From IMG/VR virus record IMGVR_UViG_3300043773_001986: a stretch of DNA of 20,000 nucleotides. One strand, written 5' to 3'. Source of the DNA: an uncultured virus (IMG/VR IMGVR_UViG_3300043773_001986). Its lineage: Duplodnaviria > Heunggongvirae > Uroviricota > Caudoviricetes. The notes under the pieces are model-generated. The model ran no database searches and had not been told where the DNA came from. It worked only from the letters and a program-made list of their open reading frames with translations. Below, one piece after another: positions 1-16,147 of the stretch (position 1 is the stretch's first letter; each line of letters begins with the position of its first letter). A program made the translations under genes and the position numbers.

Positions 1-1145
1 GTGAACGTATAAACCCTAGTTTTTTTATCAGTCAAAACTATAAAATTTTGTGTGTCCATATTTCTATTGAACCAAGATTGATTTCCTGCATAAAAATAAA
101 CATCACCATAGTATTCCGCTAAGTTAACTCTATAACTTTCACAATCACTCAATGGTTGTAAGTTTTCTTTTGCAAAAGTGTCCATTTTATTTTTAATAAA
201 AATGTCCAATCTATCTTTCATTTCCATCAACGTTAGTTCAGGAAAATCATCAGGTATGATACCTTTTGATTTATATTCACTATAAACTTCTTGAATCTTT
301 TGATACCCTCTAGTAACTGTTCTATCTTGTACGTTTGCTGACTGATTGGGGACACCACTTCTTTCTTGTATTCTAAGATTTGTTTTATACATATAAGGTG
401 TAGCTAATAGACCAGCCATTGTAATTTCAGTCATTACATTATATTTGTATGTATAAAATTGTAAGTCCACATCGAAGTTACCCGAACCAGTATTAAATGA
501 AGCACCAAATTTATACAACATCAATGGTAACCTGATTGCTTTACCTAGATACCCCTTTAGTGTTAGATAGAATAAAGGATATGGTAGGTTGAAGAAAACA
601 GCATATGGTGAACTATCACCTGATTCAAATAGAGCTTTACCTCTTATATCAATCATTTTTATTGATATAACTGGTTCAAATGCTGTGTTAATTGTGACAC
701 TAATTGACTTTATACCTAATAATCCAGTGTCAGTAGCACCAGGTTTACCACCAGTATTAATTGTTTGTCTTACATAGTAGTCATCACTTTTATTCGGATT
801 TTGAAATTGGTTTTTTATTGGTTGATTAATACCTTGACCTTTCAAAGAATCTTTCCCTGTTATTTCATCAGTCCATTTAGTATTAAGATAATCTTCTCCA
901 CCAGGTTGTAGAAAATTAAGAGATGCTACAGATACTGTTTGAATTGCATCATTAGCTGCAACACCCACGGCTAATTTAGTTCTTGGAACTACTTTACATT
1001 CCAAATTAGCATAATAAACCATATTCTCCATTCTGATGTGTCTGTCTTTTGCACGACCATCCTCATCAATAATTTTGTTTGGGTCAACTACTATAATGTT
1101 GTTATAGTCAAAATCGACTAATATATTTTCGGGTCTATCTACCAT
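1..1145 (-). CDS. Large virion/baseplate hub-like protein, truncated by the window edge (absent from ORF track)
   Basis: ATG at 1145 overlaps the end of the LysM-like gene; reads MVDRPENILVDFDYNNIIVVDPNK...GIKSISVTINTAFEPVISIKMIDIRGKALF...FFNLPYPLFYLTLKGYLG and continues off position 1. Hub call is from position after the LysM/gp53-like gene. Confidence 0.65.
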   Translation of the reverse strand, partial: MVDRPENILVDFDYNNIIVVDPNKIIDEDGRAKDRHIRMENMVYYANLECKVVPRTKLAVGVAANDAIQTVSVASLNFLQPGGEDYLNTKWTDEITGKDSLKGQGINQPIKNQFQNPNKSDDYYVRQTINTGGKPGATDTGLLGIKSISVTINTAFEPVISIKMIDIRGKALFESGDSSPYAVFFNLPYPLFYLTLKGYLGKAIRLPLMLYKFGASFNTGSGNFDVDLQFYTYKYNVMTEITMAGLLATPYMYKTNLRIQERSGVPNQSANVQDRTVTRGYQKIQEVYSEYKSKGIIPDDFPELTLMEMKDRLDIFIKNKMDTFAKENLQPLSDCESYRVNLAEYYGDVYFYAGNQSWFNRNMDTQNFIVLTDKKTRVYTF

Positions 1146-1458
1146 AATAGAAGAAATGATTGTTTAATTGGGATTTGTAATCTTGTAAAGAAGTTACTAA
1201 CGGATATGGTATTGTCAATATAGAACCATCAGGTATGTTCCATTCTTGTCCACCATATTGTGGATTAGCCATCAAGATTAACCAACCGAAAGTTGGAGAA
1301 CCATAATATTGTTGTGACACTTTATCCATTCTGGACATCCCAATTTTATAAATGTATCTTTTATCACTACTTTTGTTTGGTAGTTGAATATATGGAACAA
1401 TCGTTTGTTGTCCGTTTAAAAGAAAATCTGCGTATCTGTTATATGTTTGTCTTGCCAT
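1135..1458 (-). CDS. LysM-like baseplate wedge protein (T4 gp53 / P2 gpX-like)
   Basis: 107 aa; YIYKIGMSRMDKVSQQYYGSPTFGWLILMANP...IPDGSILTIP matches the LysM pattern; baseplate context. Confidence 0.8.
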   Translation of the reverse strand: MARQTYNRYADFLLNGQQTIVPYIQLPNKSSDKRYIYKIGMSRMDKVSQQYYGSPTFGWLILMANPQYGGQEWNIPDGSILTIPYPLVTSLQDYKSQLNNHFFYYGR

Positions 1459-1461
1459 AAT

Positions 1462-4400
1462 TTAACTATTGAATGAAACTTTTCCATCAAATGTTTGAGT
1501 ATCTTGATTAGTATTAGTGGTACTAAAAACATTTTTTATATTTGTTTCTTGTGTTGCATTAGTATTTTGGTTAGGTATCGTTGTATAATTAAATTTTCTT
1601 GTTTTACCTTTAGGATAAAGTTTTTCGTCAGGACTACTTAAGAAATTTTTTAAATATTTATCTTTTCTTAGTTCTTTGAACATTTTTTCCTCTTCCGCTA
1701 ATTCCTTATCATATTTATTAGCTAACTTATTTACTATCTGTGTAAATTGATTTTTTAAATTTAGTGGGTCTGAAATTTTAAGAAGTTCCCCTTTAATTAT
1801 ACTATTAATAAAACCATCCCTTTTATTTTTATCAGAGAATATTCTTGATATAACCATAAAGAAAAGAAGTTCAGAATTATCTTTAAATAAAGAATCATTC
1901 AATGGAAAAATTTCATCTAAACCTTCTTCTGTTGTTATAATTGTATATTTTGCCTCAGTTTCCAATCCTGACAAATAATCATTATAGTCAATCAATGCTT
2001 CGTAAACTTTCTCATAATCATAAGATAATTCCTCAGTAGTGTTAGTTGGTTTTGGACTACTTTCCAAACTTGATGCTGTTACTTCTGAAGTACCTGTTAA
2101 GTTATAAACTCTCGGTTTATTACCATTCAAAAGTTTTCCATCAGTATTTTCACTTATTAAATTTATTTGTCGTATTAAGTAAACAAAATCTTGTTCAAAC
2201 TTTATAAACTCTTGTGTTATAGTTGTAATACCATTCTCAAATTCAGATTGAAGTGTTTTAAAATACTCTTTCATATTTTGTTTAACTCCTTTAATTGCTG
2301 GTGAATCTAATCCAAATTTTTTAGCATTTAATTCTTCAATAATTATGTTAGCATCATCATCAATATCATCAGTTACATTTTTAAATAAAGTGGCCAATGT
2401 TTCACCAACACTAGATGGTGCACCCCAGATTGGTGTATCTTGGTTTGCCCAAGTTGCTCCTTTCATTAAACCAGTCGTATATAATCTTTTTTGATTCACC
2501 AATTGTAGAATTCCATAATTATAATTTAGTGTAATCTTTTCTAATGTATTAAGTGTGTTATTGAAATAACCTACACTTTGGTCTATTAATGTGTCCATTA
2601 CTTTTCCGTATGAGATTTCACCATTTTGACCATTAGGTACTGGTATATTTGTAATAATTTCACCTATAGTTGAACCACCAGGATTTGTCTGTGGTGGTGT
2701 TGAATTTTGAGTTGTCGCAGCTTCTTCTCCTGCGGTTAAAGAAGTAATAATTTCTTGGTCTACAACTTTATAACTTTCATCAGTAGGTGTTGCTCTTTCA
2801 TCATATATTTCTGTGTTAGCATAATAGTTGAATGATAAAGCATTCTGTAATTGTTCTACAGGACCTTTAAGACCCATACCACCAATAATGTCAAATCCCA
2901 TTTTTACTGAAACTATCATTGGTTGTAATCCAATACCTTCAGGATTCATATCAAATTGACCATCTTTTTCGTATGTAAAACTAACACTTTTAGGTATTAT
3001 CTTTGTATTGTAAAAATCTCCTATTCTAAGTATTAGAACTGGTGGTGCACCAAATGCAGTATTTTGAGCATCATTGTATCTTGGTTTACCATCAGGACCT
3101 ATTGTTGGTATCGTTTCACCAGGTTTTGTACATTGATTCAAGAAAGTTAGACGAGCATTTAAGCCTTCAGGTGTCATAGAATGGAAAGCCGGATTGAAAT
3201 ACTTTATTTTTTCAACAATTGAAGTATATACCATAGGATTTTCTTCCTTCAATACTTCAAAATAATCACATTCACTAAATAAGTTTCTCAATATTTTTTT
3301 ACCAATACCATCTTTAAGTTTTTTAACAATATCTACAGTTGGTTGAACTCTATCTACAGGTCTACTTGATACAACATCAACTTGTTGTGTTTTGACTTCT
3401 TTTTGTTCTTCAACATTCGGTTGTTCAATAGTTTCAATATCGGGTACATCAACAACAATTGATTTTATTATAACTCTTCTACAAGCCATTGCATTTACAG
3501 AATATACTTGTGATTGAAAAGTGATAGCACCAGTTGTACTTTTAATATCCTCAGTACAATTTACTTCAAAACCTGGTGTACCATCTGCCGATTTGGGAAC
3601 AACACTTTTAGCTTGTTCACCACTTGCAATTTCTTTAATTATTAGTTTTTTATCATCAATAAATTTTTGTAAATTAGCATCTCCGATTTTAAAAGATTTT
3701 AAGAAACTTTCAACTGAATCTATTCTTCTTTGTGACAATTTTTTATTGTAATCAACTGACGCAGTCGCTGAGGCAGCACCCTCCATTTCTATAGTAATAG
3801 TTCCTTTTTTATTATTCAATAAATCAAAGGCATCAGTAATAAAATTCTTTTGTCCACTTGAAACTTTTTCATAATTTGTTTTTACAACAGAATCGAAAAA
3901 CTCGTTGACATTTTTGGCTCTATTACAAAATTCAACATTTTGTTTACAATAAGTTCCACCTGAAGCAAAAGCTGATTCAGCATTCGTTTTATAAGTTTCT
4001 TTTTTTGAAATATAACCATCATAAGTACTATTATATGGAATATCACCAGATGATGGAATATCATTGTCAAAATAAAAACCTATACCTAAATAGGCATCAA
4101 CAAAAGCTTGTTTAGCTGGGTCTGGTGTAGTTTTTTTGACACCCTGAGGTGGAGTAACATTTCCTCCATCTTGTCCTCCAAGTGGTACATTTTCTTTTGA
4201 TATTTCTGTTATAACTTGACCAAGTTCTTCTTTGGTTAATCTTGGATTATTAATAACCTCTTGGTATGTATATAATTCAGACAATGGTATTGTATTAAAT
4301 TTTTTAGCTAATTCGTAAATGTCAAATTTTACACAACCTGCAAAAAATGAATCAACTATTGAATCAATTTTTTCTTTAGTTTGACCCTTAAGTTGTTTTT

Positions 4401-6501
4401 GAACAATTGTGTTCATAACAGAAGGATGGTCGACTATGATTTTCCAATTTACTGAACCACTTCTACTTGATTTTGAGTAAGTATATATAGGTTCAGGTCT
4501 ACCAATAAAAGTTGTTGCATCGAAGGATACATCAGCACTATCTTCAAATGTTAAATCATAGGGTGGGAACCACATAATTCTACCACCATTAGGTCCTCTT
4601 TCACATGCAGGTAAATCATCATATGTAAACCCAGGTTTACTTGATGTTCTCCAAGCAAGATTTTCAATTGAGAACATATATTTTTTAGCAACAACTTGAC
4701 CTTTTGCATTTGGTTGTAGATTTGTTGAACCAGGATTTTTGAGTGGTGCTATGTTTAAATTATAAGTGTTGTCCAATACAGAATAGTCAAATCTTCTACC
4801 TGATTTAGTAATACCATCTGATTTCTGTAAATCACCATAAGTGTAATAAGGTGTATCTTTTGCAAATACCCTACAATATTCAATACCCGCTTCAGCACCA
4901 GTAGTGTTATCTCTATATGATAAAACTCTTGAACCTTTTGTTAATTCTTTATATCCATCGTTGAAAACTTTACTAACTTGATTAATTGCATTTCCAACGT
5001 GTTTTAATCTCGAAATACCATTAACTAAATCCGCCGAATTAACAAGACGTTGAGTTGCATCTAAAATAGAACTTTCTTTGAATTGTAAATTTGTTGATTC
5101 GTTACTTGTATATTGTGAACTTATTAAATTAAATTCCTCATCTTGTGAACCAGTACCACCACCAGGTGTTGCTTTAAAACCAGCATCACTTTTATATTTA
5201 GGTGAAACCCACACAAATTGACCATCAATACCTCCACCATCAGATGATGATTTACCAGCCAAACCAAAATTTAATCGACCAATATTTCCTTCATATAAAC
5301 TACCCAACTCACTAGGTCCATAAACCGGTGTTTGTACTTGTCTTCCGAATGGGTCAATAGGTATTTGTAAAGGTGGTGATGTAATAGTCGATGGTTCAGA
5401 TGTTCTACTACCCACATAGTAACCACCATTCAAAGTACCATTTTGATTTATTGTACTTTCAGTTTGTGCAAATTGTGAAGTTCTTGTATATTGTGCTCTA
5501 TATCTATTATAATCAATATTAGCAAATAAAGCTGATTGTTGACCTGTACCAGTGTTATCAATGAAATTCTGTGATGGATTCGTTGTAATATTTAAGGTGA
5601 GTGGTAAACCTCCACCTCCAGTTGTTAAATTAGGTACGTTAAGAGCTAATGATATTTGTGTGGATGAACCAGCATTAAAAAGTACAGGGTCAAAATAATC
5701 ACCAGCAATAGGTGATACAGGAAAATATGCACCCCCCAAACTTTGTATAAATGGTGATTCATTAGTTGGTGTTGTTGGTACTGTAATAGTCCAATTTTTA
5801 GACCTCAAGGGTTCTTTACCCGCAATAATTAAAGAAATATCAAAAGGGTCACTTGTTGTATCAAGAGTCAAAGTGCCTTGTGTATTTCTTCTTGTATCAG
5901 CATCAACTCTGTCCTGAAAAAGTTTTTTTAAAGTTTGAGCCCCAAGCTTAGCTAAATATGAATCTTGTGATAATAATCCACTATCACCAGCGGGGTCAGG
6001 AGAAATTAGAATCTGATATGGACTATAGGAAGAGGGTACAAAAGTTGGGGGATTCCAATATGGTGTATATAACTTATTATTGTTTTGTATGTTATCAATA
6101 ATAACCATATCATTGAATCCTCCCACAGGACCATATCTGTTTTCGATATATGCTGCGTCAATAAAAAATTCATTAACTAAATCTAGTACTGTGTCGTTTG
6201 GACTATATTCACCTTGATTAGAACTATTAATTATTGGTGGGTTATTGTATGTGATTGTATAATTATATCCACCTTCAGGTCCATACTCATTCAACGGATA
6301 AAGTTGTCTTACAAATGGATTCTGTGAGATTAAATCATCAGGTGAATTAATAACATTGTAATCACTTAAACTTGTTTCATATGTTCTAGTACCAACAGGT
6401 GCTGTATAAACACCAGTCACTGCATAGGGGGGTAAATTCCTATTCAGTAAACTATTTCTAAAACTTGATGTTGATGCAAACGATAATGAACTTTCGGACA
6501 T
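1462..6501 (-). CDS. Large baseplate / tube-initiator-like protein with internal OmpA-like domain
   Basis: 1679 aa; tube-initiator-like segments (FPPYDLTF...FIGRPEPIYTYSKSSRSG; PPVLILRIGDFYNTKII...QPMIVSVKMGF) flank FYFDND...GAASATASVDYNKKLSQRRIDSV...CRRV; lies between the tape measure and LysM genes. Confidence 0.7.
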   Translation of the reverse strand: MSESSLSFASTSSFRNSLLNRNLPPYAVTGVYTAPVGTRTYETSLSDYNVINSPDDLISQNPFVRQLYPLNEYGPEGGYNYTITYNNPPIINSSNQGEYSPNDTVLDLVNEFFIDAAYIENRYGPVGGFNDMVIIDNIQNNNKLYTPYWNPPTFVPSSYSPYQILISPDPAGDSGLLSQDSYLAKLGAQTLKKLFQDRVDADTRRNTQGTLTLDTTSDPFDISLIIAGKEPLRSKNWTITVPTTPTNESPFIQSLGGAYFPVSPIAGDYFDPVLFNAGSSTQISLALNVPNLTTGGGGLPLTLNITTNPSQNFIDNTGTGQQSALFANIDYNRYRAQYTRTSQFAQTESTINQNGTLNGGYYVGSRTSEPSTITSPPLQIPIDPFGRQVQTPVYGPSELGSLYEGNIGRLNFGLAGKSSSDGGGIDGQFVWVSPKYKSDAGFKATPGGGTGSQDEEFNLISSQYTSNESTNLQFKESSILDATQRLVNSADLVNGISRLKHVGNAINQVSKVFNDGYKELTKGSRVLSYRDNTTGAEAGIEYCRVFAKDTPYYTYGDLQKSDGITKSGRRFDYSVLDNTYNLNIAPLKNPGSTNLQPNAKGQVVAKKYMFSIENLAWRTSSKPGFTYDDLPACERGPNGGRIMWFPPYDLTFEDSADVSFDATTFIGRPEPIYTYSKSSRSGSVNWKIIVDHPSVMNTIVQKQLKGQTKEKIDSIVDSFFAGCVKFDIYELAKKFNTIPLSELYTYQEVINNPRLTKEELGQVITEISKENVPLGGQDGGNVTPPQGVKKTTPDPAKQAFVDAYLGIGFYFDNDIPSSGDIPYNSTYDGYISKKETYKTNAESAFASGGTYCKQNVEFCNRAKNVNEFFDSVVKTNYEKVSSGQKNFITDAFDLLNNKKGTITIEMEGAASATASVDYNKKLSQRRIDSVESFLKSFKIGDANLQKFIDDKKLIIKEIASGEQAKSVVPKSADGTPGFEVNCTEDIKSTTGAITFQSQVYSVNAMACRRVIIKSIVVDVPDIETIEQPNVEEQKEVKTQQVDVVSSRPVDRVQPTVDIVKKLKDGIGKKILRNLFSECDYFEVLKEENPMVYTSIVEKIKYFNPAFHSMTPEGLNARLTFLNQCTKPGETIPTIGPDGKPRYNDAQNTAFGAPPVLILRIGDFYNTKIIPKSVSFTYEKDGQFDMNPEGIGLQPMIVSVKMGFDIIGGMGLKGPVEQLQNALSFNYYANTEIYDERATPTDESYKVVDQEIITSLTAGEEAATTQNSTPPQTNPGGSTIGEIITNIPVPNGQNGEISYGKVMDTLIDQSVGYFNNTLNTLEKITLNYNYGILQLVNQKRLYTTGLMKGATWANQDTPIWGAPSSVGETLATLFKNVTDDIDDDANIIIEELNAKKFGLDSPAIKGVKQNMKEYFKTLQSEFENGITTITQEFIKFEQDFVYLIRQINLISENTDGKLLNGNKPRVYNLTGTSEVTASSLESSPKPTNTTEELSYDYEKVYEALIDYNDYLSGLETEAKYTIITTEEGLDEIFPLNDSLFKDNSELLFFMVISRIFSDKNKRDGFINSIIKGELLKISDPLNLKNQFTQIVNKLANKYDKELAEEEKMFKELRKDKYLKNFLSSPDEKLYPKGKTRKFNYTTIPNQNTNATQETNIKNVFSTTNTNQDTQTFDGKVSFNS

Positions 6502-6539: not shown

Positions 6540-8351
6540 TCATCTACCAAAATTCATATTTTGTTGTGATGGAGTTTGTTTACCTGTTGGGTCTTTGGCC
6601 ATTTGAGCAATCATTTGAATAAACTCAGGTTTTTTCATAAGTTCATTCAACACTCTTTCGACCTCAGTGGTATTTACACCAGGTGGGGCTGAAAAAGTTA
6701 CATTTAAATTACCACTATAATTTAAGTTTTGAGTTGTTGGTGCTTGTACTTGTTTTTGTAATTTATCCAAATAACTCATTTCAGTTGTTTTCGGTGTTGT
6801 GGTAGTTGCTACTTGAGTTTTAGTTTTTTCATCCTCACCAGTCAAAATACTTCCAACTTTAGATTCTTTATACACAACACTAGCTTTTTCCATTTTTTCC
6901 TTAAACATATTGTAAAACTCGTTGGCCATATTACTGCCAGCCTCACCAGCTCCTTTGAAATCACCTTTGAATAAACTTTTAATCAAATCATCTGACTGAG
7001 TTCCAATACCTTGTCTAATTCCCTTTTCTGAAAATGTTTCTGTTTTTTCTTTACCTTCTTTATCCTTAGTTGTTCTCTTTAATACTTCGATACCATTTTT
7101 ATAAATTTCTATCTCAGCCCTACTTAATCTTTCACCACCTTTGGATGCTGCTAAACCATAACCCATAGTGTCAGCAATCATAGCCAACAATATTTCTTGG
7201 TTTTCTTGGACAGTAAGTTGTTCTTTTGCCAACTCTTCCATCGTTTTAGGTTCTTGGTCTTTCATAAATTTGTCTAAAGCATCTTTGTCTTTAGCAAAAG
7301 TTTCCATAGCTTTATCTATTCCCATTTGAGTACCATCAACGGTTAAAGTCATTTCACCACCAGGACCTATTTCTGATAAATTAGCTATGAAGTTTCTTTG
7401 TTCTTCAGTAAATGTTGCAGGAAATTTAATTTTACTCAATTTCATATCGAGTTCTTTTGAGCCAGTTGCCATTTTTGCTAATTCATCATAACTCATTCCC
7501 ATTTCTTTGGCAATCTCTCTTAGTTGTCTTTTTGCACCAGGCATAATTTCGAAACGACCATCTTTATTAAGCTGAACAAATTTTTCTGACATTTTGGACA
7601 TTTGATTCATCAATTCACCAGGGTCATTCTGTGCCATATCCATCAATCGAAGTGGGTCTAATAATTCAGATTGTGTAACACCTAATCTTTGTAATGCCGC
7701 CGACATTTCTATAGCTTTGTCAGGTTCGAATAAACTTTCGGATAATGTAAAAACTTCTTCCATATTTATTCTTAAAACTTTAGCCTGAGCTACCATTTTA
7801 GTTAACCCTTCTATACCACCTTTAAAATTAAATGTATTAAGTTTAGTTAAATTTTTTGCTACCTCATCTGAAACACCTTGAGCATTAACTCCCATTTTTC
7901 TTGAGATGTCAACTACTTTCTGCATTTGGTCTTGTACACCCATATATGAAACACCAACATCTTTGAATTTTTTTGCCATATCATCAACTTCCAAACCAGT
8001 AACCTTAGCTGTTGCTATTAATCCTTTATACGCTTGATTATTTAATATGACATTCCTACCCAAATCAGAGGATATTGATGTTTGAATAGCTGATATATCA
8101 GAAAATTTTCCACCCAATTCTTTAACATCACCAACAACATCTGTCATTGCTGCTTTTATGCTCAATATATTAGTTCTACCAACACCAAAAGATTTTGCGA
8201 CACCAATTGCAGCACCCTCTACTTCATCAAAAACTTTTTTTAAACTAGCAGGTTTTACATTTGATAATACAGCGTCACCAAAGTTTTCTCCAATTTCCTG
8301 AAATTGTTTTTCTATACCACTTAAGAGTGATTTACCATCGTCTCCACCCAT
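6540..8351 (-). CDS. Tape measure-like protein
   Basis: 603 aa, helical-looking A/K/E/M/Q-rich sequence directly downstream of tube and chaperone genes. Confidence 0.7.
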   Translation of the reverse strand: MGGDDGKSLLSGIEKQFQEIGENFGDAVLSNVKPASLKKVFDEVEGAAIGVAKSFGVGRTNILSIKAAMTDVVGDVKELGGKFSDISAIQTSISSDLGRNVILNNQAYKGLIATAKVTGLEVDDMAKKFKDVGVSYMGVQDQMQKVVDISRKMGVNAQGVSDEVAKNLTKLNTFNFKGGIEGLTKMVAQAKVLRINMEEVFTLSESLFEPDKAIEMSAALQRLGVTQSELLDPLRLMDMAQNDPGELMNQMSKMSEKFVQLNKDGRFEIMPGAKRQLREIAKEMGMSYDELAKMATGSKELDMKLSKIKFPATFTEEQRNFIANLSEIGPGGEMTLTVDGTQMGIDKAMETFAKDKDALDKFMKDQEPKTMEELAKEQLTVQENQEILLAMIADTMGYGLAASKGGERLSRAEIEIYKNGIEVLKRTTKDKEGKEKTETFSEKGIRQGIGTQSDDLIKSLFKGDFKGAGEAGSNMANEFYNMFKEKMEKASVVYKESKVGSILTGEDEKTKTQVATTTTPKTTEMSYLDKLQKQVQAPTTQNLNYSGNLNVTFSAPPGVNTTEVERVLNELMKKPEFIQMIAQMAKDPTGKQTPSQQNMNFGR

Positions 8352-8413: not shown

Positions 8414-8549
8414 CTATAATTTTATTGACTAAATATTTTCTTGAGTATGTTGGTAAATTTAAAAAATCGGTATATGATGTATGAAGAAATTTACCCAATA
8501 AAAAATACTCATCTAATAATACTTCTCTATACTTAGAAGAAAGGGCGAA
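8391..8549 (-). CDS. Chaperone C-terminal extension (lambda gpT / T4 gp51-like) in the +1 frame, no ATG
   Basis: Reads (F)ALSSKYREVLLDEYFLLGKFLHTSYTDFLNLPTYSRKYLVNKIIEYHTSEK*, stop at 8391-8393; fills the gap between chaperone and tape measure genes. Confidence 0.75.
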   Translation of the reverse strand, partial: FALSSKYREVLLDEYFLLGKFLHTSYTDFLNLPTYSRKYLVNKIIEYHTSEK

Positions 8550-9291
8550 AAAATTCAACACCAAAGGTGACCTCCAAATTCACCTGTTCACCTGATGGTG
8601 CTCTAACAACTCTTTTTAAATCCAAAGATGGTTCATTTTCTTTTATGAATTTTTTAATAAATTTTGAATCCATAATTGGAAGATTATTTACCATTTGTGA
8701 AATTTTTTCTCTATCTGTCTCACCATTAATTTCAACAATATGTTTCATTAATTTCCAAGTAACTCTTGGAGGTGTCATATTAGTAGGATAACTTTCAACC
8801 ATTTTATCTATTTCAATGATTTCACCATAAGTCAGTGGTTTAAGTTTTACATTCGCTTCACTACGTGGTAATTTTACATTGTAATGTCCGTTTTCATCAG
8901 GTGTTGAATTTGGTTTAACAATATTTAATTCATCCAAAACTATTGTAGCTTCGAATGGTTTGTTTGTTAATGGGTCAGTCAATGTGAGTGTGTATTCAGG
9001 ACCGAAAGATGTATTTCTCAAATAAATTAGAATTGCTTCAACATCACCCTCTAAAAGTTCTTCGGGTCTGATATCTGTTTCGTAAAGTTTACTTCGTATT
9101 AAAGTAGTAACAACATTTACATTAGGATTAGAAATTCCCCCTAAAATTATGTTTTCATCATTAGCTGTAAGGTAACCAACTTTTACAGATTTCTTTTTGT
9201 TCTTATAAAAAATACCACCCGATGGTAAAGGAACTACATCGTGTGGTAAATTAAAATTTTCAGTACCGGCTTTTAATATATTAGCATCCAT
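8533..9291 (-). CDS. Tail assembly / baseplate hub assembly chaperone (T4 gp26-like)
   Basis: 252 aa; VPLPSGG...VKVGYLTANDENII...GDVEAILIYLRNTSFG, VKLPRS..VKLKPLT, C-terminal VEFFRPFF; between tube and tape measure. Confidence 0.8.
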   Translation of the reverse strand: MDANILKAGTENFNLPHDVVPLPSGGIFYKNKKKSVKVGYLTANDENIILGGISNPNVNVVTTLIRSKLYETDIRPEELLEGDVEAILIYLRNTSFGPEYTLTLTDPLTNKPFEATIVLDELNIVKPNSTPDENGHYNVKLPRSEANVKLKPLTYGEIIEIDKMVESYPTNMTPPRVTWKLMKHIVEINGETDREKISQMVNNLPIMDSKFIKKFIKENEPSLDLKRVVRAPSGEQVNLEVTFGVEFFRPFF

Positions 9292-9344: not shown

Positions 9345-9833
9345 TTAGTATACTAATATACATCTATCCATTCTAAGGTTTGCTTGGATTGTTGCTATTT
9401 TGTCATCACTATATGATAGTCCTTGAAAATCAACGTTAGTTAAAAAACAACCCTCAAGTATCCATTTTTCAACAACTACACCAGTTGGGTCTAACATCTC
9501 CAAATCAACATTTTTCTTATATCCCGCAGCATACCCCATACGACCTGTTACAGATTCAGCATGAAGACGAACCCATTCCATAAGTGCTTGTGCTGCAGAT
9601 GGACCGATAGGGTCTCTAAAAGTAACAGAAATTTCTTCCCAGTTAAATCTACCTGCAACATATGTTGAAGTGTTTAAAAATGGGATTTCAACCGAGTTTA
9701 TCTTAACTTTTGGTCTAGATGTTGATTCCACGAACCATTCATTAATACCTAAAGAAGAAGGAAATCTCATAATAAACCTATTCTGTCTTTTAGGTTCATA
9801 AGGTATGGGCATTTTCATCAATAAATCAGCCAT
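9345..9833 (-). CDS. Tail tube protein (T4 gp19-like)
   Basis: 162 aa; YEPKRQNRF, YVAGRFNWEEISVTFRDPI, YKKNVDLEMLDPTGVVVEKWILEGCF are typical tube motifs. Confidence 0.92.
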   Translation of the reverse strand: MADLLMKMPIPYEPKRQNRFIMRFPSSLGINEWFVESTSRPKVKINSVEIPFLNTSTYVAGRFNWEEISVTFRDPIGPSAAQALMEWVRLHAESVTGRMGYAAGYKKNVDLEMLDPTGVVVEKWILEGCFLTNVDFQGLSYSDDKIATIQANLRMDRCILVY

Positions 9834-9930: not shown

Positions 9931-10009
9931 TACTAGAACTAGTTAAATATTATTAATATAATATTTTATATTAATTTATATAATATTCTTTTTATTCTAG
10001 TTTCTAGTT
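9931..10009. repeat. Inverted CTAG-containing boxes flanking a 45-bp pure A/T tract
   Basis: ACTAGAACTAG (9932-9942) and TTCTAGTTTCTAGT (9995-10008); no G or C in 9943-9987. Confidence 0.6.
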
Positions 10010-10847
10010 GTAATTCTTCTTCATCTGGTTTGTATTCCTTTTTAATACCTCCGTGTGTTGAAAATATTTTAACATCTTTTACCCCCTTACTCATAGCCTT
10101 AATATTTCTCGGGTCATCATCAGAAAATCCTATCATAGGAACAAATTTATTTCTTATTTCGTTTTCTATTTTTTTAGATAATCTTAAGTTTAATTTTTCA
10201 GCTTGACCTTGAACATATTGTTTGAATCTATTCATTGTTGTAATTTTAGCTACTTCAGGATTTGTTGCTGACCCTTCCCCATAAGAAACAGGATAATACC
10301 TATTCATTTTTAGGTACTTCATTATTTCAGTTTCTTTATCAGCTGGATTTTCACCAGAGTTAATTCTCATTTCTTTTAATGAATCATATAGAGAATCAGA
10401 ATCAATTCCACCTCTATTTGAATCTATAAGTTTTTTAACCCCCATCATTAGTGTTGATGGTCTATGTCCTCTTGCAGTAATAATTGCAAACAACGAACCA
10501 TTATTAATTGCTTCTACAAAATCAGGCCATGCAGCATCATTAGCTAATTCAGCACTCATTACATCCTTTAAGAATTTACCATCCCCAGTAACTCTAAAAT
10601 CTCTGAATGGGTCTGGTGCAAAATTTACGATAGTAAAACCCTCATATTCAAAAGGTTCTTTTCCTATCTGAGTTCTATATTCAGCAAAATCCTCAGTTCC
10701 CATACCAACTTCTTCTCCATCATCATCTAATAAGTAGATTTTTGTTGGCATATACATTAAGTTATCATCCCAATCAAAAGCATAATACTTCATTGGGATT
10801 TCTCTTTCTTCAAATTCTCTAAGTAATTTAATAATTGTATTTCTCAT
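9966..10847 (-). CDS. HAD-superfamily phosphatase
   Basis: 293 aa; motif I YAFDWDDNL, motif II IITARGH, candidate motif III Lys in PEVAK, motif IV GFSDDDPRN. Confidence 0.8.
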   Translation of the reverse strand: MRNTIIKLLREFEEREIPMKYYAFDWDDNLMYMPTKIYLLDDDGEEVGMGTEDFAEYRTQIGKEPFEYEGFTIVNFAPDPFRDFRVTGDGKFLKDVMSAELANDAAWPDFVEAINNGSLFAIITARGHRPSTLMMGVKKLIDSNRGGIDSDSLYDSLKEMRINSGENPADKETEIMKYLKMNRYYPVSYGEGSATNPEVAKITTMNRFKQYVQGQAEKLNLRLSKKIENEIRNKFVPMIGFSDDDPRNIKAMSKGVKDVKIFSTHGGIKKEYKPDEEELQLETRIKRILYKLI

Positions 10848-10908: not shown

Positions 10909-12432
10909 TTATCGTAATGATAGCTCAAATTTTAACGAACCACAATCCCAAATTCTATCATAACCTTTTAGTTTCATAATTTCCCACTCTGTCATATTTT
11001 TATCATAACCCTCCTTAACAAGTACATCCTTTCTAAACACAAATCTATGATGTCTATTTAGATATTTATCAGTTTTAATATACCAATAATTTGGTGGTGT
11101 TTTTGATGTATATTGAAAACCATTTTTGTGATAAACTGTGTTGTTTGGATTAATACCCGACCATCTGATATCTGCAAAAGTTTCTATTTTATGTGGATTG
11201 ATGTTATTGATAAAATATTTTAACAATTTAGAGAATCCTCCAACAATTGTAGTGAACTTTTTATTACTAAATCGGATTAATTCATATTCGTCAGAAATGA
11301 TATCTTTATTACCTAACGATTTTCTTTTTTTTCCAAAAGTCATTACAGATACTAATTCATTTTCAAAAAAAAGACCATATCTAAATTTATCAATAGTATA
11401 ACCTTGTAAATGATTTTCATTCAAAAATTCCATAGATTGTTTTTTTGTGATTTCTTGAGCATTACATTTTCTACCATAAATTTTACTATTTAAATTCAAT
11501 TTACTCGATAACTTAGATAATACGATATCTGTTTTTAACATAATTTCATCTTCATAGAATTGAATCAAATTAATATTTTTATCATTCGAAAGAATCGTTT
11601 TGTCAATATGATATAATTTTGTCTTTTCTCCACTTATTTCAGAATGAAAATAATTACCATTTACCTCAATTCCAAGATTGAAATCGGGTAAAAAAATATC
11701 AATTTCTTTACCATTTAATATTTTTCTGTCGGCATCAATATGTTTTATATTATTCGTATTTAAAAAATCTTTAATTTTTTGTTCTAAGTTGGAATTTTTG
11801 GTAATTGGGTAACATTTTCTACAGATTGGTATTTTACCACTACCTAATAATGTACTACTAAAAATGTTTTCACATTTAGTACACTCGAAAGTATAAGATT
11901 GTGAGGTATTACCATTTTTATTTTGTTTATAATCATCTAATAACTTCAAATTTTGTTCATCTAATTTGGGGAGTAGTTTGTCTAAATGTTTTATTTTAAT
12001 TGTGTTTTTTAATTTATCCACAAATTCTTGTAAATACATAGGACTCTTAACTCCATACTTCTCTATGAAAAGTTTATCTCTATTTTTTTTAAACTCATCT
12101 AATTTGAATAAAGAATCCTCACCATACTTTTCATATAACACTTGTTTCGACTTGTTAATTCTATTTTCTTTATTGACCTCTTTTTTATTCCAAATTGTTC
12201 TACATTCATTGGAACAAAGTTTTCTTTCGTGTTTTTTTCTTTCTGTAAAACTATTACCACATTGGATACAAGTTCTGTTTTCCCTCACGCTTTCATCTTT
12301 CTCCTTACCAAGTATCTTATTTTTTTTAGCATACTCAAAATAACAAGTTCTATCACAGAATTTTTTATCTCTATGTTTATAATCTGTAACAAACATATTC
12401 GTACAATTCATACATTTTAATTCAATTTTCAT
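10909..12432 (-). CDS. Free-standing Hef-like homing endonuclease: Zn-finger repeats, Vsr/PD-(D/E)XK-like nuclease, GNAT/Mom-like C-terminal domain
   Basis: ATG at 12432 (507 aa) preferred over the track's 12465 start; two CxxC...CxxxC repeats, EKYG repeats, another Zn ribbon, SNLE...EIDIFLPDFNLGIEVNGNYFHS, then FLNENHLQG...ELIRF...VGGFSKLL...FADIRWS. Confidence 0.75.
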   Translation of the reverse strand: MKIELKCMNCTNMFVTDYKHRDKKFCDRTCYFEYAKKNKILGKEKDESVRENRTCIQCGNSFTERKKHERKLCSNECRTIWNKKEVNKENRINKSKQVLYEKYGEDSLFKLDEFKKNRDKLFIEKYGVKSPMYLQEFVDKLKNTIKIKHLDKLLPKLDEQNLKLLDDYKQNKNGNTSQSYTFECTKCENIFSSTLLGSGKIPICRKCYPITKNSNLEQKIKDFLNTNNIKHIDADRKILNGKEIDIFLPDFNLGIEVNGNYFHSEISGEKTKLYHIDKTILSNDKNINLIQFYEDEIMLKTDIVLSKLSSKLNLNSKIYGRKCNAQEITKKQSMEFLNENHLQGYTIDKFRYGLFFENELVSVMTFGKKRKSLGNKDIISDEYELIRFSNKKFTTIVGGFSKLLKYFINNINPHKIETFADIRWSGINPNNTVYHKNGFQYTSKTPPNYWYIKTDKYLNRHHRFVFRKDVLVKEGYDKNMTEWEIMKLKGYDRIWDCGSLKFELSLR

Positions 12433-12492
12433 AGGTAAATTATTTTTTAATGTAACAAACACCAATCTACATATAAATATAGGATATTTAAT

Positions 12493-12553: not shown

Positions 12554-15500
12554 TTAAATATTCTCAAACGAAGCACCTGTTGGGGTGATATAGAAAGTAA
12601 TATCTATAAATTCTAACGAACGAGTTGGTTTAATATATATTTTACCTGTCAATTGGTTTCTATCCAAATCTGCAGGGTCTGAAGAAACCGTTACACGGAA
12701 ATCATACAAACCTCTATCTCTTCTGATAGCATCTAATATTGGATTGACAGCATCTAAGAAATCTTGTCTTACTTTTTCGTCATTTTGTTCGAACAACAAT
12801 CTAACTGAAACTGCAGATATAAGTTTTCTTGCTTGTAATAACAATCTTCTTACGTTGATTCTATCAAGAGCAGATTCTCTAATTTGCATAGTTTTGTTAC
12901 CCCAAATAACTGTTCCTACATCAGAGAAAGTTGCGATTGGATTAATTCTACCTTTGTATAGAGTATCTCTTTCTTCTTGTGTAAGTTTTCTTCTCGCTTT
13001 GATTGCGTTAACAATACCTCTTGTATAACCTGCCGCAGCAAACCAAGGGAAAGCAATATTATCAGTTAAAGCTAAGTTTCTACAAACCTCAGCAGTTGGT
13101 GGTATATAGATTTGTGTATTGTTAACAGTATCTCTTGTTAATACCCAAGGATAGTAAGTTGCCGTGTAGTTAGAATCTATACCCGCAGTTTCTAAGTTAT
13201 CAACAGCTTCTTGTGGATAAATAACATCAGTTTGTTCACCCGTTGTTGGTACTAACATATTGTAGTCAGGTGTTGTTGTGATGTAAATTGAGTCAGCTCT
13301 ATCAAATTCTATCATTTCTATTGCTGCTTCTACAAGGTTACTATTGTTTACATAATCAATACCTGTTGTTACGAATACATTTATATTAACCGCTTCAGGA
13401 TTTTGGAATGTTTGTTGACCTAACAAGTAAGCGTAATAGTCAGTATTAGCATAATCTTGAGTTGTATTCCCAACTGTTATTGTTTTGAATGCACCCCATC
13501 CTGTTGCTGTTGGATATCTGAACGATGGACATGCACCTCTTAAATAACCACTTCTACCCAAAATAAAGTTATCGGCATTAGTTCTACGTTCTCTGTAGAT
13601 GTCCCAACCATCGAAACCACCTGAGCACAAGAAACTAAATTTACGTGCAAATATTCTGTAGTAAGGATTTGTTTCATCACTAGGGTCACTTGTGAATGTA
13701 CCACTACCAACATAAAACTCAGCAGTACCACTTGTAGTAAACGAGTTAGCAATAGTAATACCTGAAGCGTCTTTATCCATATGGAAACCTTTTGTTCTAT
13801 AAGACCAATCAGCCCCAGTAGTTGCATCACAGATACTTGAACCTGGTAAACGTTTTCCTTTGTAAGTGAAGAAATCAACATCGTAACCAACTGTATCAGA
13901 AATACCTAAATATGTTCTTCTAACATTGTCACCAGCACTTCTTAAAGCATCATCAGCACCTGAAGCTAACCCGAAAGGTGGATTGTATACAACTTCACCA
14001 GGGAAATCATATTTAGTTTTGTAAATTGGGAATGGTGATTTTGCACCAGCATATTCTCTCATATTGTAACCAACGAAACCACAAGGTAAAGCATCGATTG
14101 GTGCATCTTCATTAATCTCTAACATTACAAATTTGGAGTTCAAAGCATATTCACCATCTTTAGTTCCAATTTTTTTAGCTATGAAATTATTTTCATTAGG
14201 ATTCATTGAACAATTTGTAAATTTCTCTAATACAACAGGATTTGAATCACTATCAAAGAAATCTCTAATTTGAACATCAAAAGTACCATTATTGAATGAC
14301 ATATTTGCCATAGAAATTTTTACTTCTGTATTTGCAGCATCCCCATCAGCTATCGTTGTAAATCTGAATAGATTAAATACTTTGTTACCTCTAAGTTCAG
14401 AAACAACCCATGGAGAAACTGGTGATTGGTATCTTTCTAAGTAGAAAGCTATTGAAGTTGCGTCTACCTCTTGTCTTGCATTTGGTAATGCAATCAAGTC
14501 ACAATTCAAACCTCTAATGTAACCTTTTCTATAACCATAGTTTAATAATGATTGGAACCTTTCTTCTACAAACAATGGTGTTGTTGCTCTTGGTTTTGCA
14601 AAGTTACTTGAACCGAATACTTTAGCAATATACTTAGGGTCTGAATTAGTAAATGATGTTTCGAAAGTAAAGTTATCACCATCTTTATTAGTAACATTAA
14701 GTGCAAATGTTGAATATGGATTTTTAGTAACCGCTGAATATGTGCCAGTACAATCCATACTAACGTCAGTTAATCCACTGACCTCATATACGGCACCATT
14801 ATCTGTACCATAAGTTGCAATACCTCTTGAACGTAGTGTTGCTATTACCAAGTCATCATAATCTGTATATGCTGTACCACTATAAATGTATATGTTACCA
14901 GTTATACTACCACTATAACAATTAGTGATTGTACCTGTTTGAATTGTTCCTGTATTACCTGTTGTACAAACACCACATGGGTCTGTGAAAAGTAAATTAA
15001 CAGTCCAAGCTGAAGTTGCTGTCAAATCGTCAGATACTATTGTATATGATTTAGTCAAAGAACTAAAATTATAACCAACTGTTGTTGCCGATTGTACCAC
15101 ACCACCACTTGTTATACCACTTAATGCTGGGTTAGTACAAGCACTGAAATTAATAGTCATTGCAGTTACGTCAGCTGTAGTTGCTGTGGATGGAAGACAA
15201 ACATTAATTACATTTGTATTGTAATTGATTGCACCTGTAACTGTAGTGATAGTTGGAGAACTTACTGAGTAACTATAAAATGATGCACAATTTGATAACG
15301 ATGATGTTAGTGTTAAACTATTAACATAATCGTAAAAAGAATAACCCGAATATTGACCATTTCCAATATTATCAAAAGTTGCATAATACCAAGTATCATT
15401 AACGGCTGCAGTATAGTCGGCCAAATCCGAACTAATGTTATCAACACCAAACACATTATTTTGAGAAGTGTACCCTGATAATAATGTATCAATAGTTCCA

Positions 15501-16147
15501 CCTGATACTGTACCAAAATAGTTTATTGATGTTGCTGATGTTGATGGGGTGTTTAAAATATTGAATAACTGATTTTTTATATCAGAATCAATCGTTGAGG
15601 TTGACCCATTAAATAACTCATATGTACTATATAAGTCACCCGATAGAAGTGCCGGTATTGATGTTGTGTATGAAATAGAGTTAATACTATTTGTACAACC
15701 AGTAAAATTGATTGTATAACTACTAACTTTAAATTCAACACATTGTGTAATACAACTTACAGTTGAAGCACTTGAACAATCAAACCCAACAGTTGATTGG
15801 TCAACATTAGCAACCGTAGATATAGACCAAGAAGGTCCTGCATCATAACCTGATAACCCAAGAATTCTTGTTACGAATAATTGGTTAGATTGTTGTAAGT
15901 ATGCTTTGGCTACATAAGCGGCTTCATACTTTGGTATTTGAGTGTTTATAAATTTCTCAGGGGAAGTACCACCGAAATACGTTGTGAATTCGTCAAAGTT
16001 TGTAATAAAAATAGGTTCGAAGGCTGGACCTTTCAAGGTTTCACCAACAATACCAAGAGTTGTTACGCCCACACTTTGTGACACAAAACTTAAATCGACC
16101 TCAGAAGTATAGACACCAGGAGATACGAAAACTTTACTGTTTGACAT
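12554..16147 (-). CDS. Contractile tail sheath protein (T4 gp18-like) with insertion
   Basis: 1197 aa; N-terminal VSPGVYTSEVDLS; C-terminal ATYYPWV, PWFAAAGYTRG, RDTLYKGRINPIATF...IWGNKT...ALDRINVRRLL, FEQND, IKPTRSLEFIDITF. Confidence 0.97.
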   Translation of the reverse strand: MSNSKVFVSPGVYTSEVDLSFVSQSVGVTTLGIVGETLKGPAFEPIFITNFDEFTTYFGGTSPEKFINTQIPKYEAAYVAKAYLQQSNQLFVTRILGLSGYDAGPSWSISTVANVDQSTVGFDCSSASTVSCITQCVEFKVSSYTINFTGCTNSINSISYTTSIPALLSGDLYSTYELFNGSTSTIDSDIKNQLFNILNTPSTSATSINYFGTVSGGTIDTLLSGYTSQNNVFGVDNISSDLADYTAAVNDTWYYATFDNIGNGQYSGYSFYDYVNSLTLTSSLSNCASFYSYSVSSPTITTVTGAINYNTNVINVCLPSTATTADVTAMTINFSACTNPALSGITSGGVVQSATTVGYNFSSLTKSYTIVSDDLTATSAWTVNLLFTDPCGVCTTGNTGTIQTGTITNCYSGSITGNIYIYSGTAYTDYDDLVIATLRSRGIATYGTDNGAVYEVSGLTDVSMDCTGTYSAVTKNPYSTFALNVTNKDGDNFTFETSFTNSDPKYIAKVFGSSNFAKPRATTPLFVEERFQSLLNYGYRKGYIRGLNCDLIALPNARQEVDATSIAFYLERYQSPVSPWVVSELRGNKVFNLFRFTTIADGDAANTEVKISMANMSFNNGTFDVQIRDFFDSDSNPVVLEKFTNCSMNPNENNFIAKKIGTKDGEYALNSKFVMLEINEDAPIDALPCGFVGYNMREYAGAKSPFPIYKTKYDFPGEVVYNPPFGLASGADDALRSAGDNVRRTYLGISDTVGYDVDFFTYKGKRLPGSSICDATTGADWSYRTKGFHMDKDASGITIANSFTTSGTAEFYVGSGTFTSDPSDETNPYYRIFARKFSFLCSGGFDGWDIYRERRTNADNFILGRSGYLRGACPSFRYPTATGWGAFKTITVGNTTQDYANTDYYAYLLGQQTFQNPEAVNINVFVTTGIDYVNNSNLVEAAIEMIEFDRADSIYITTTPDYNMLVPTTGEQTDVIYPQEAVDNLETAGIDSNYTATYYPWVLTRDTVNNTQIYIPPTAEVCRNLALTDNIAFPWFAAAGYTRGIVNAIKARRKLTQEERDTLYKGRINPIATFSDVGTVIWGNKTMQIRESALDRINVRRLLLQARKLISAVSVRLLFEQNDEKVRQDFLDAVNPILDAIRRDRGLYDFRVTVSSDPADLDRNQLTGKIYIKPTRSLEFIDITFYITPTGASFENI

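Follow-up and report, generated by a model that had tools for sequence, protein, structure and literature searches.

An OmpA-like domain nested within a predicted tail-tube initiator of contractile-tailed phages

The DNA considered here is a 20,000-nucleotide stretch (the window; G+C content ~31%) of a 35.8-kb record of an uncultured virus of the Caudoviricetes, IMG/VR IMGVR_UViG_3300043773_001986. Its minus strand carries one open reading frame (ORF), running from position 6501 to position 1462, that encodes a tube-initiator-like baseplate protein of 1679 amino acids, P0001, and the full-length protein is encoded identically on six other IMG/VR contigs. From the modelled fold, P0001 is probably the protein on which tail-tube assembly begins in a large contractile-tailed phage. 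What is new is a nested layout, in which the tube fold as modelled encloses a helical insert that in turn encloses an OmpA_C domain on two linkers, with an uninterrupted fold in the same gene position of two cultured phages. Sequence comparisons indicate that this layout is a real and widespread variant of the tube initiator, and that the wall-binding function predicted for it is better grounded. The architecture was not found in the literature searched, which was mostly open-access and had bioRxiv supplements outside its coverage; a huge-phage envelope preprint, in its available part, treats beta-barrel outer-membrane proteins.

The initiator fold was assessed on an AlphaFold model of residues 601–1260 built from 80 sequences, with a mean predicted local distance difference test score (pLDDT) of 71.6 and a predicted template modelling score of 0.45. 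Over 10-residue blocks, pLDDT is mostly 90–98 in the OmpA insert. The first tube half scores ~80 and some stretches of the second 60–80; values <50 mark the linkers and some of the helical insert. A structure search of the model against 48,161 chains returned two interleaved sets of matches, with OmpA, Pal and MotB domains falling on residues 791–1019 and baseplate and tube chains falling on the joined flanks. The flanks align jointly to the Photorhabdus virulence cassette (PVC) baseplate chain 9qgl_7A (Z 9.9, 4.2 Å, 154 aligned residues, model residues 1..617), and also match 9g8s_T of phage phiCD508 (Z 9.7) and 9gtp_P of the Streptomyces contractile injection system (Z 9.4). The split fold proposed in a preliminary description of the window is thus confirmed by modelling, residues ~607–690 and ~1110–1207 joining into one tube-initiator fold. 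Together with diffocin 8v3w_G, P1 9ay5_G, AlgoCIS 7aeb_M and Mu 9ki1_0, these initiators share a tube-like fold with P0001 at Z 8.4–9.9; the chains are presumably Pvc7, Alg7, gp43 and the like. A natural homologue that has no OmpA domain, P0167, was modelled over a 499-residue part (mean pLDDT 60.4) and brought the same baseplate set to the top (Z 9.9–8.2), with a best match at Z 9.9 and 4.0 Å over 139 aligned residues. For both models the top baseplate chains lie within 1 Z of each other across extracellular contractile injection system-type, gp48 and gp54 subclasses, and Foldseek with the 660-residue model gave no rows at E ≤0.001. Since the Z values are middling when taken singly, the case for the fold rests on their consistency together with gene position, the initiator gene sitting between a tape-measure-like gene and LysM/gp53-like and hub genes, of which the outer two are labelled by position.

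The nesting is best seen against two cultured phages, which were reached through the tail tube gene, a tblastn search of cultured phages giving no match either with the whole protein (at E 1e-3) or with residues 1066–1240 (at E 10). Flavobacterium phage vB_FspM_immuto_2-6A and Microcystis phage Mel-JY01 share the gene order of the P0001 phage (sheath, tube, hub-subunit-like, tape measure, initiator, ~105-amino-acid gene, large gene). A profile of the first tube half matches their same-position proteins, gp35 (716 amino acids; E 3e-9) and WWT39329 (2255 amino acids; E 7e-9), with an hhalign probability of 76%, and an OmpA profile finds no match in either gene. The second-half profile falls below significance against these two proteins, and there the correspondence was read by eye: in both proteins a strand passes directly into a helix and then into the next strands, with no helical insert. 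In P0001, ~420 residues separate the strand (residue ~690) from the helix (residue ~1110), which we take to face the outside of the tube rings. Family members that have no OmpA domain retain the helical parts, and only the middle is missing. Because these members keep the helices and the cultured phages have an uninterrupted fold, the modelled arrangement is nested. Thus, the proposal that the domain is inserted within the tube fold holds insofar as it lies between the two halves, but the insertion is not a direct one, being into a helical insert (residues ~693–767 and ~1056–1106). An intein or intron was ruled out, the insert being in frame and folding as OmpA_C.

All of the sequence motifs named in the preliminary description are present, in the places given for them, in the single minus-strand frame. 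FPPYDLTF starts at nucleotide 4569 (residue 645), FYFDND lies at nucleotide 4077 (residue 809), GAAS-x6-YNKKLSQRRIDSV spans residues 908–930, CRRV ends at nucleotide 3472 (residue 1010), PPVLILRIGDF starts at nucleotide 3045 (residue 1153), and QPMIVSVKMGF ends at nucleotide 2893 (residue 1203). From the N-terminus, and with all coordinates on the minus strand, residues 1–606 (4684..6501) have no Pfam or PHROG match; the two cultured phages likewise have long N-terminal extensions ahead of the initiator domain. The first half of the tube fold, defined by the model and by structure and profile matches, covers residues ~607–690 (4432..4683) and consists of strands (E10-14 to E72-90 in model numbering) and a long hairpin ending KIIVD; the segment originally placed at ~4420-4580 does belong to this fold, but the fold starts further upstream, near residue 607. 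Part A of the helical insert (residues ~693–767; 4201..4425; pLDDT 40–60) is retained in OmpA-less relatives and missing from the two cultured phages. It is followed by linker 1 (residues ~768–790; 4132..4200; pLDDT <50 for residues 720–785) and by the OmpA_C-like domain (residues 791–1019; 3445..4131), supported by profile, model and structure match. Linker 2 (residues ~1020–1055; 3337..3444; pLDDT <50 for residues 1029–1075) is rich in Pro, Glu, Val and Gln, close to the composition first reported for both linkers, but linker 1 is instead rich in Gly, Pro and Thr. Part B of the helical insert (residues ~1056–1106; 3184..3336), recognised from alignment and model, is well conserved, and the second half of the tube fold (residues ~1110–1207; 2881..3174), identified by model and structure match, comprises the helix TPEGLNARL and three strands, with many invariant columns in the family alignment. 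The C-terminal region (residues 1208–1679; 1465..2880) has no Pfam or PHROG match, and an Atlas search with residues 1280–1679 gave no usable match. Two side observations concern the initiator gene elsewhere: it is split into two ORFs in L051:8246-13157 and L095:1455-6440, which may reflect a sequencing error, a frameshift or an insertion, and the 2255-amino-acid protein of Mel-JY01 has long tandem repeats ahead of the tube domain.

The OmpA_C fold predicted for the insert is evident in the model, where residues 791–1019 superimpose on Acinetobacter baumannii OmpA (3td3_A) with a Z of 10.2 at 2.3 Å over 120 of 120 residues. Searches of solved structures with family profiles likewise put OmpA, Pal and PorE domains at the top (best E 8e-7 and 6e-8). 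With single sequences, the best E against solved structures was 0.45 for P0001, and the inserts of two far relatives (L168 and L169) gave no useful match. The fold is that of PorE (6TOP), OmpA, Pal and MotB (3TD3, 4PWT) and TagL (5M38), with Tyr, Asn, Leu/Ile and Arg in register. Compared with PorE, P0001 has Ser for Asp576, Asn for Phe541, extra helices after strand 1 and a Cys pair (C982 and C1007), and it belongs to a phage tail, not to an envelope protein. Across 130 representatives, both Cys residues are present in 101, neither in 21 and one only in 8 (counts that ignore relatedness), a pattern from which a C982–C1007 disulfide is inferred.

PorE, which has a TPR/PD40 architecture, binds the peptidoglycan stem peptide, and its described contacts are Phe541, Asp542, Asp576, Tyr583, Asn584, Ile587 and Arg591 (PMC7192894). 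In order, these map to N813, D814, S911, Y918, N919, L922 and R926 of P0001, the register being set by a profile alignment to 6TOP (S911 on Asp576) and, for strand 1, by a primer sequence given in the methods of the same paper. The observation that the usual pocket Asp is replaced (GAAS) therefore stands: S911 occupies the Asp576 position, and an Asp is found there in only 1 of the 130 representatives. Thus the Asn and Arg of the binding triad are present (N919 and R926) and the Asp is absent. Ser911 is retained in 106 representatives, Tyr918 in 89, Asn919 in 110, Leu922 in 109 and Arg926 in 121, and all five occur together in 85. In an alignment of 42 diverse inserts, the mean frequency of the top residue is 0.91 at the seven pocket positions versus 0.44 domain-wide, a level reached by none of 200,000 random position sets. 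Identity to relatives is 25% in the insert, and 59% and 62% in the two tube halves. As to what such a pocket requires, the corresponding Asp, Asn, Leu and Arg serve in the TagL pocket (PMC8253398), Arg is reported to be required for binding of meso-diaminopimelic acid (mDAP) by PapS (PMC11369160), and SiiA is described as binding peptidoglycan with only the Leu and Arg of the motif (bioRxiv 10.1101/641415), in each case as far as the available text of the source goes.

Cellular relatives of the insert were sought in three phyla with a profile of the 42 inserts. Among 151 genomes from Bacteroidota, the phylum to which a Paludibacteraceae bin belongs, there were 11 matches in 9 genomes (E 4e-27 to 5e-17), followed by a gap to 1.7e-9, and 29 of 101 genomes of the order of the best genome matched at E ≤1e-11, five of them shared with the first nine. 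Two other phyla served as controls. For Pseudomonadota, represented by 251 genomes from the phylum that includes a Polynucleobacter bin, the best E was only 1.6e-9; for Cyanobacteriota, represented by 101 genomes that share their phylum with a Prochlorococcus genome, there was no match at 1e-8. Of 35 high-scoring cellular domains, 34 could be parsed, and all 34 have Ser, Tyr, Asn, Leu and both Arg residues, the 35th being alike by eye; the strand-1 loop Asn-Asp is present in 33. These counts lean towards agreement, because only domains with Asn, Leu and the first Arg fitted the pattern and a Ser raises the profile score. The Bacteroidota Ser-type subfamily and the phage domains share a YFxNDxP loop, a helical insert, G[YF][ATC]S, YN..L..RR and a YS..A..RRV-like end. 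The cellular proteins carry the domain together with TPR and/or PD40 modules in a PorE-like manner (26 of 34) or as fusions to a PorP/SprF barrel (7), one having no other match, and they have no conserved Cys pair, whereas the phage has kept only the domain; for instance, the TPR, beta-propeller and CRD modules described ahead of OmpA in PorE (PMC7192894) have no counterpart among the Pfam matches of P0001. The neighbours of the cellular genes are ordinary chromosomal genes (25 of 40 neighbours scanned). A route through Pfam OmpA matches in three Bacteroidota genomes uncovered no Ser-type domain (25 motifs from the 30 best loci, 20 of them with Asp).

In a quick tree of 102 columns with 23 phage, 18 Ser-type and 19 Asp-type domains (subsampled from 42, 34 and 37, respectively), the phage and Ser-type domains fall on one side of a branch with a support of 96 (Shimodaira-Hasegawa-like approximate likelihood ratio test) that separates them from the Asp-type domains. 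Within that side, support for a grouping of 21 phage rows is only 83, and the two remaining phage rows, both long, are placed among the cellular domains. Because the cellular subfamily shares the Ser, the Asn-Asp loop and the helical insert, the absence of the Asp is better read as inheritance than as decay, and the role of the domain in cells suggests that the transfer ran from cell to phage. The replacement, which may alter ligand binding as first suggested, is not peculiar to the phage. In addition, an Atlas search returned, as leads only, an OmpA cluster at 0.87 and three clusters with no name at 0.91–0.93, in each of which Bacteroidota is the most frequent taxon among 4–7 members. The Ser-type OmpA_C subfamily in Bacteroidota chromosomes (loci L211–L219 and L245–L269) is an observation in its own right; it lies mostly below the Pfam cut-off and was not found described in the literature searched.

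The arrangement is widespread. Used as queries, residues 480–1260 matched 5956 of 7999 scored candidates and residues 601–1260 matched 1808 clusters at 50% identity; an automatic OmpA-like name appears on 8 of the 120 matches listed. In a survey of 151 proteins (the 150 best representatives and P0001), 140 have both tube halves, and an OmpA profile match lies between the halves in 130. Four have short gaps of 75–129 amino acids and no OmpA domain, and six have long gaps with no profile match, although the motif is visible in five of these six. The OmpA-less forms are undercounted, because the ranking query contained the insert. Among fetched loci, near-copies included, the domain is present in 131 of 132 ORFs with both halves, the exception being L084, a 102.8-kb contig on which the neighbouring genes are kept at normal length (107 and 2261 amino acids). 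An unrooted FastTree computed from only the tube halves requires three changes to account for the short forms. On it, nine OmpA-bearing rows share a set of 98 support with P0167, and 25 share a set of 99 support with P0235, placements that read as losses of the domain. With OmpA-less forms at three places in the tree, the domain therefore seems not to be needed for tail building. The far relatives L167–L169, from genome bins, have compact or diverged inserts that fall below the profile threshold, with the motif visible by eye. A search for stand-alone domains, limited to proteins of 129–413 amino acids, gave six matches; the contigs that carry them are only 0.6–3.3 kb long, and the six are probably fragments of genes. 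Family members also turned up in nine genome bins (L162-L170) assigned to at least six unrelated taxa, mostly on low-GC or short contigs; these bins give no reliable host, since the members are probably mis-binned phage DNA.

What the domain does is a separate matter, and an even chance is given to the reading that it is a captured periplasmic wall-binding domain that holds the tip of the injected tube on peptidoglycan. Such anchoring is plausible, and the conserved pocket and the match to Bacteroidota envelope proteins lend it support. Six copies of P0001 would ring the tube tip, and on contraction this initiator ring would be carried along by the tube across the outer membrane. There the OmpA domains, on their tethers, would engage the stem peptides of peptidoglycan and keep the tube in the periplasm during passage of the wall and of the DNA. 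In what is available of the respective reports, the tube of phage 812 is drawn driven through the wall with initiator and hub (PMC13433997), gp43 of Mu is stated to pass into the host (PMC11915804), and the post-contraction attachment of P2 is suggested to occur mainly via the tube–initiator complex (bioRxiv 10.64898/2026.09.14.750843). On these accounts, an OmpA domain on the initiator ring could reach the periplasm. Since some relatives do without it, the domain would be an accessory grip, not a building block.

Several points weigh against wall anchoring. Against Pfam OmpA (PF00691), P0001 scores 18.9 bits (E 0.002), and 23.7 bits in the genome search, short of the gathering score of 27.2. 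The pocket Asp is replaced by Ser, and the residue corresponding to Phe541 by Asn, and the test of pocket conservation is not specific to ligand binding, because the same residues help to keep the fold together and loops are part of the permutation set. The profile alignments to solved structures that were listed contain no Ser-type domain, so that peptidoglycan binding by the cellular Ser-type domains is itself a prediction. Some relatives lack the domain altogether. Six domains of 25 kDa would have to pass the breach in the outer membrane, and the location of P0001 in the virion is itself predicted. Finally, LysM, also a wall-binding fold, is described as a structural part of the baseplate in the available portions of two accounts (PMC11915804; bioRxiv 10.64898/2026.09.14.750843).

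This last point leads to the foremost alternative, that the domain has been co-opted structurally and binds the wedge, the gp53-like protein or the hub, steadying the extended baseplate or timing contraction with no role in peptidoglycan binding, much like the LysM and ripcord domains found on other initiators. In Mu and related systems, the LysM and helix-rich domains of the initiator contact the wedges, according to the parts of the literature available, and both the absence of the pocket Asp and the co-varying Cys pair of the phage proteins, which is not conserved in the cellular subfamily, count in its favour. However, the OmpA-less relative L084 keeps its neighbouring genes at normal length, and conservation is concentrated on the ligand pocket, matching the cellular pocket, while most other positions vary; co-option is judged unlikely, if a serious competitor. 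Less probable again is an altered ligand, whereby the Ser-type pocket of host and phage proteins recognises either an altered stem peptide or a type IX secretion or gliding protein located in the periplasm or outer membrane, and the domain serves as a secondary receptor-binding or host-range module. That the Asp-to-Ser and Phe-to-Asn changes are fixed together in phage and cellular members fits this idea, as do the type IX-associated architectures of the cellular carriers and the many weaker, short OmpA-like matches in the same Bacteroidota genomes. Yet the other contacts to diaminopimelate (Arg, Asn, Tyr and Leu/Ile) are all retained, and the literature searched offers no alternative ligand.

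A decaying passenger, captured and tolerated in a loop without function, is very improbable and already largely excluded: low overall identity of the insert and the scattered OmpA-less forms would be expected of one, but the profile match in most representatives, the motif in five of the six long inserts without a match, the invariant pocket and Cys residues, and the motif still visible in L167–L169 would not. An artefact, either a chimeric assembly or a chance motif, to which the weak single-sequence Pfam score might point, has a negligible chance given the single open frame, the identical protein on six other contigs, the 1808 clusters and the structural match at Z 10.2. A more specific form of the wall-anchoring reading can be put forward only tentatively, namely that a six-armed grapple at the tube tip, derived from the type IX secretion-associated proteins of the hosts, latches onto peptidoglycan inside the periplasm, once the tail has contracted, throughout a very large clade of Bacteroidota phages.

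Comparison with known machines shows both shared and distinct features. As far as the available descriptions go, known initiators also attach accessory domains to the tube domain and occupy a like gene position, but their LysM, helix-rich and handle domains are separate or C-terminal, whereas P0001 nests OmpA_C inside the fold. The preliminary description had likened P0001 to the type VI secretion system anchors TssL and TagL. The analogy is apt in that both pair an OmpA-family domain with a contractile, tail-like machine (TagL 5m38, Z 7.8), but it is a loose one, as TagL and TssL are described as inner-membrane proteins by which the machine is fastened to the wall of the very cell that makes it (PMC8253398), whereas P0001 is encoded by a phage tail gene and would meet peptidoglycan only from outside. 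No type VI membrane-complex cluster was found in the window, the 12 ORFs scanned giving phage tail, endonuclease and helicase families.

The genes around P0001, all on the minus strand, form a tail module. Immediately downstream lies a 107-amino-acid gp53/LysM-like baseplate gene (1135..1458; phrog_7145, E 1.4e-5; PF11246, E 0.029), which adjoins the initiator gene throughout related loci, and then the start of a hub-position protein (1..1145; 2349–2450 amino acids in the closest contigs) that has no Pfam match and owes its label to gene position alone. Upstream is a 603-amino-acid gene in the tape-measure position (6540..8351), also labelled by position, with no Pfam or PHROG family match. 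Further upstream are genes for a T4-type baseplate protein (8533..9291; PF12322, E 1e-9), a tail tube protein (9345..9833; phrog_4542, E 8e-27) and the sheath of a contractile tail (12554..16147; phrog_23, E 2e-54; PF17482, E 4e-9). The order recurring in related loci is a gene of 600–690 amino acids, the initiator, a gene of 107–108 amino acids and a large gene of mostly 2100–2500 amino acids.

Between the sheath and tube genes lie two further ORFs. One encodes a 518-amino-acid homing endonuclease (10909-12465, minus strand; phrog_3339, E 2e-102), and its gene is missing from the same interval in L084. The other (9966-10847, minus strand; 293 amino acids), which is present in L084 too, has no Pfam or PHROG family match and carries an FDWDDN motif that we take to be HAD-like. 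The hub-position protein contains a variable segment, being 2450 amino acids long in L001, L003 and L008 versus 2349 in L005 and L007 (L001:7856-15205 against L005:5344-12390), with identical initiators. A possible wall-cutting C-terminal domain is suggested in two hub-position proteins, that of immuto_2-6A (L083:22315-25131), annotated as a carboxypeptidase, and that of a far relative on a rumen contig (L167:8635-13944), with a weak CHAP match (E 0.059); by Pfam, no further wall-acting domain was found in 22 longer homologues and 4 hub-position proteins. A cluster of glycosyltransferase-like ORFs, labelled by eye, lies upstream on the same contig (G000:C1:614-5104).

On the question of host, the relative G599 encodes the ribosomal protein bS21 on the opposite strand, between the portal and prohead protease genes, a layout also described for phages predicted to infect freshwater Bacteroidetes (Chen et al. 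2022; PMC9723584, as far as its available text goes). Matches to bS21 were found in two of four records searched, a set separate from the window's own 35.8-kb fragment, and the closest contig, G602 (27% complete), gave none. The phage probably infects Bacteroidota. Tables of the same paper list an OmpA-labelled family near bS21 (four rows) and two more such genes, any of which might correspond to P0001. Mel-JY01 (L082) also carries ribosomal protein S21 along with the same tail gene order, and its listed cyanobacterial host fits oddly with the Bacteroidetes hosts predicted for bS21 phages.

Its resemblance to a Bacteroidota subfamily makes the OmpA domain an independent clue to the host. The domain of 230 residues, its cellular counterparts and the natural OmpA-less forms are proteins on which the proposed function could easily be tested. 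If that function is borne out, the Ser/Asn pocket would represent a second mode of stem-peptide recognition by OmpA domains and might modulate host range. An initiator with a wall-binding domain would, in addition, provide a direct molecular handle on how the contracted tail is retained in the periplasm during DNA crossing, in a phage family that is very common in aquatic habitats.

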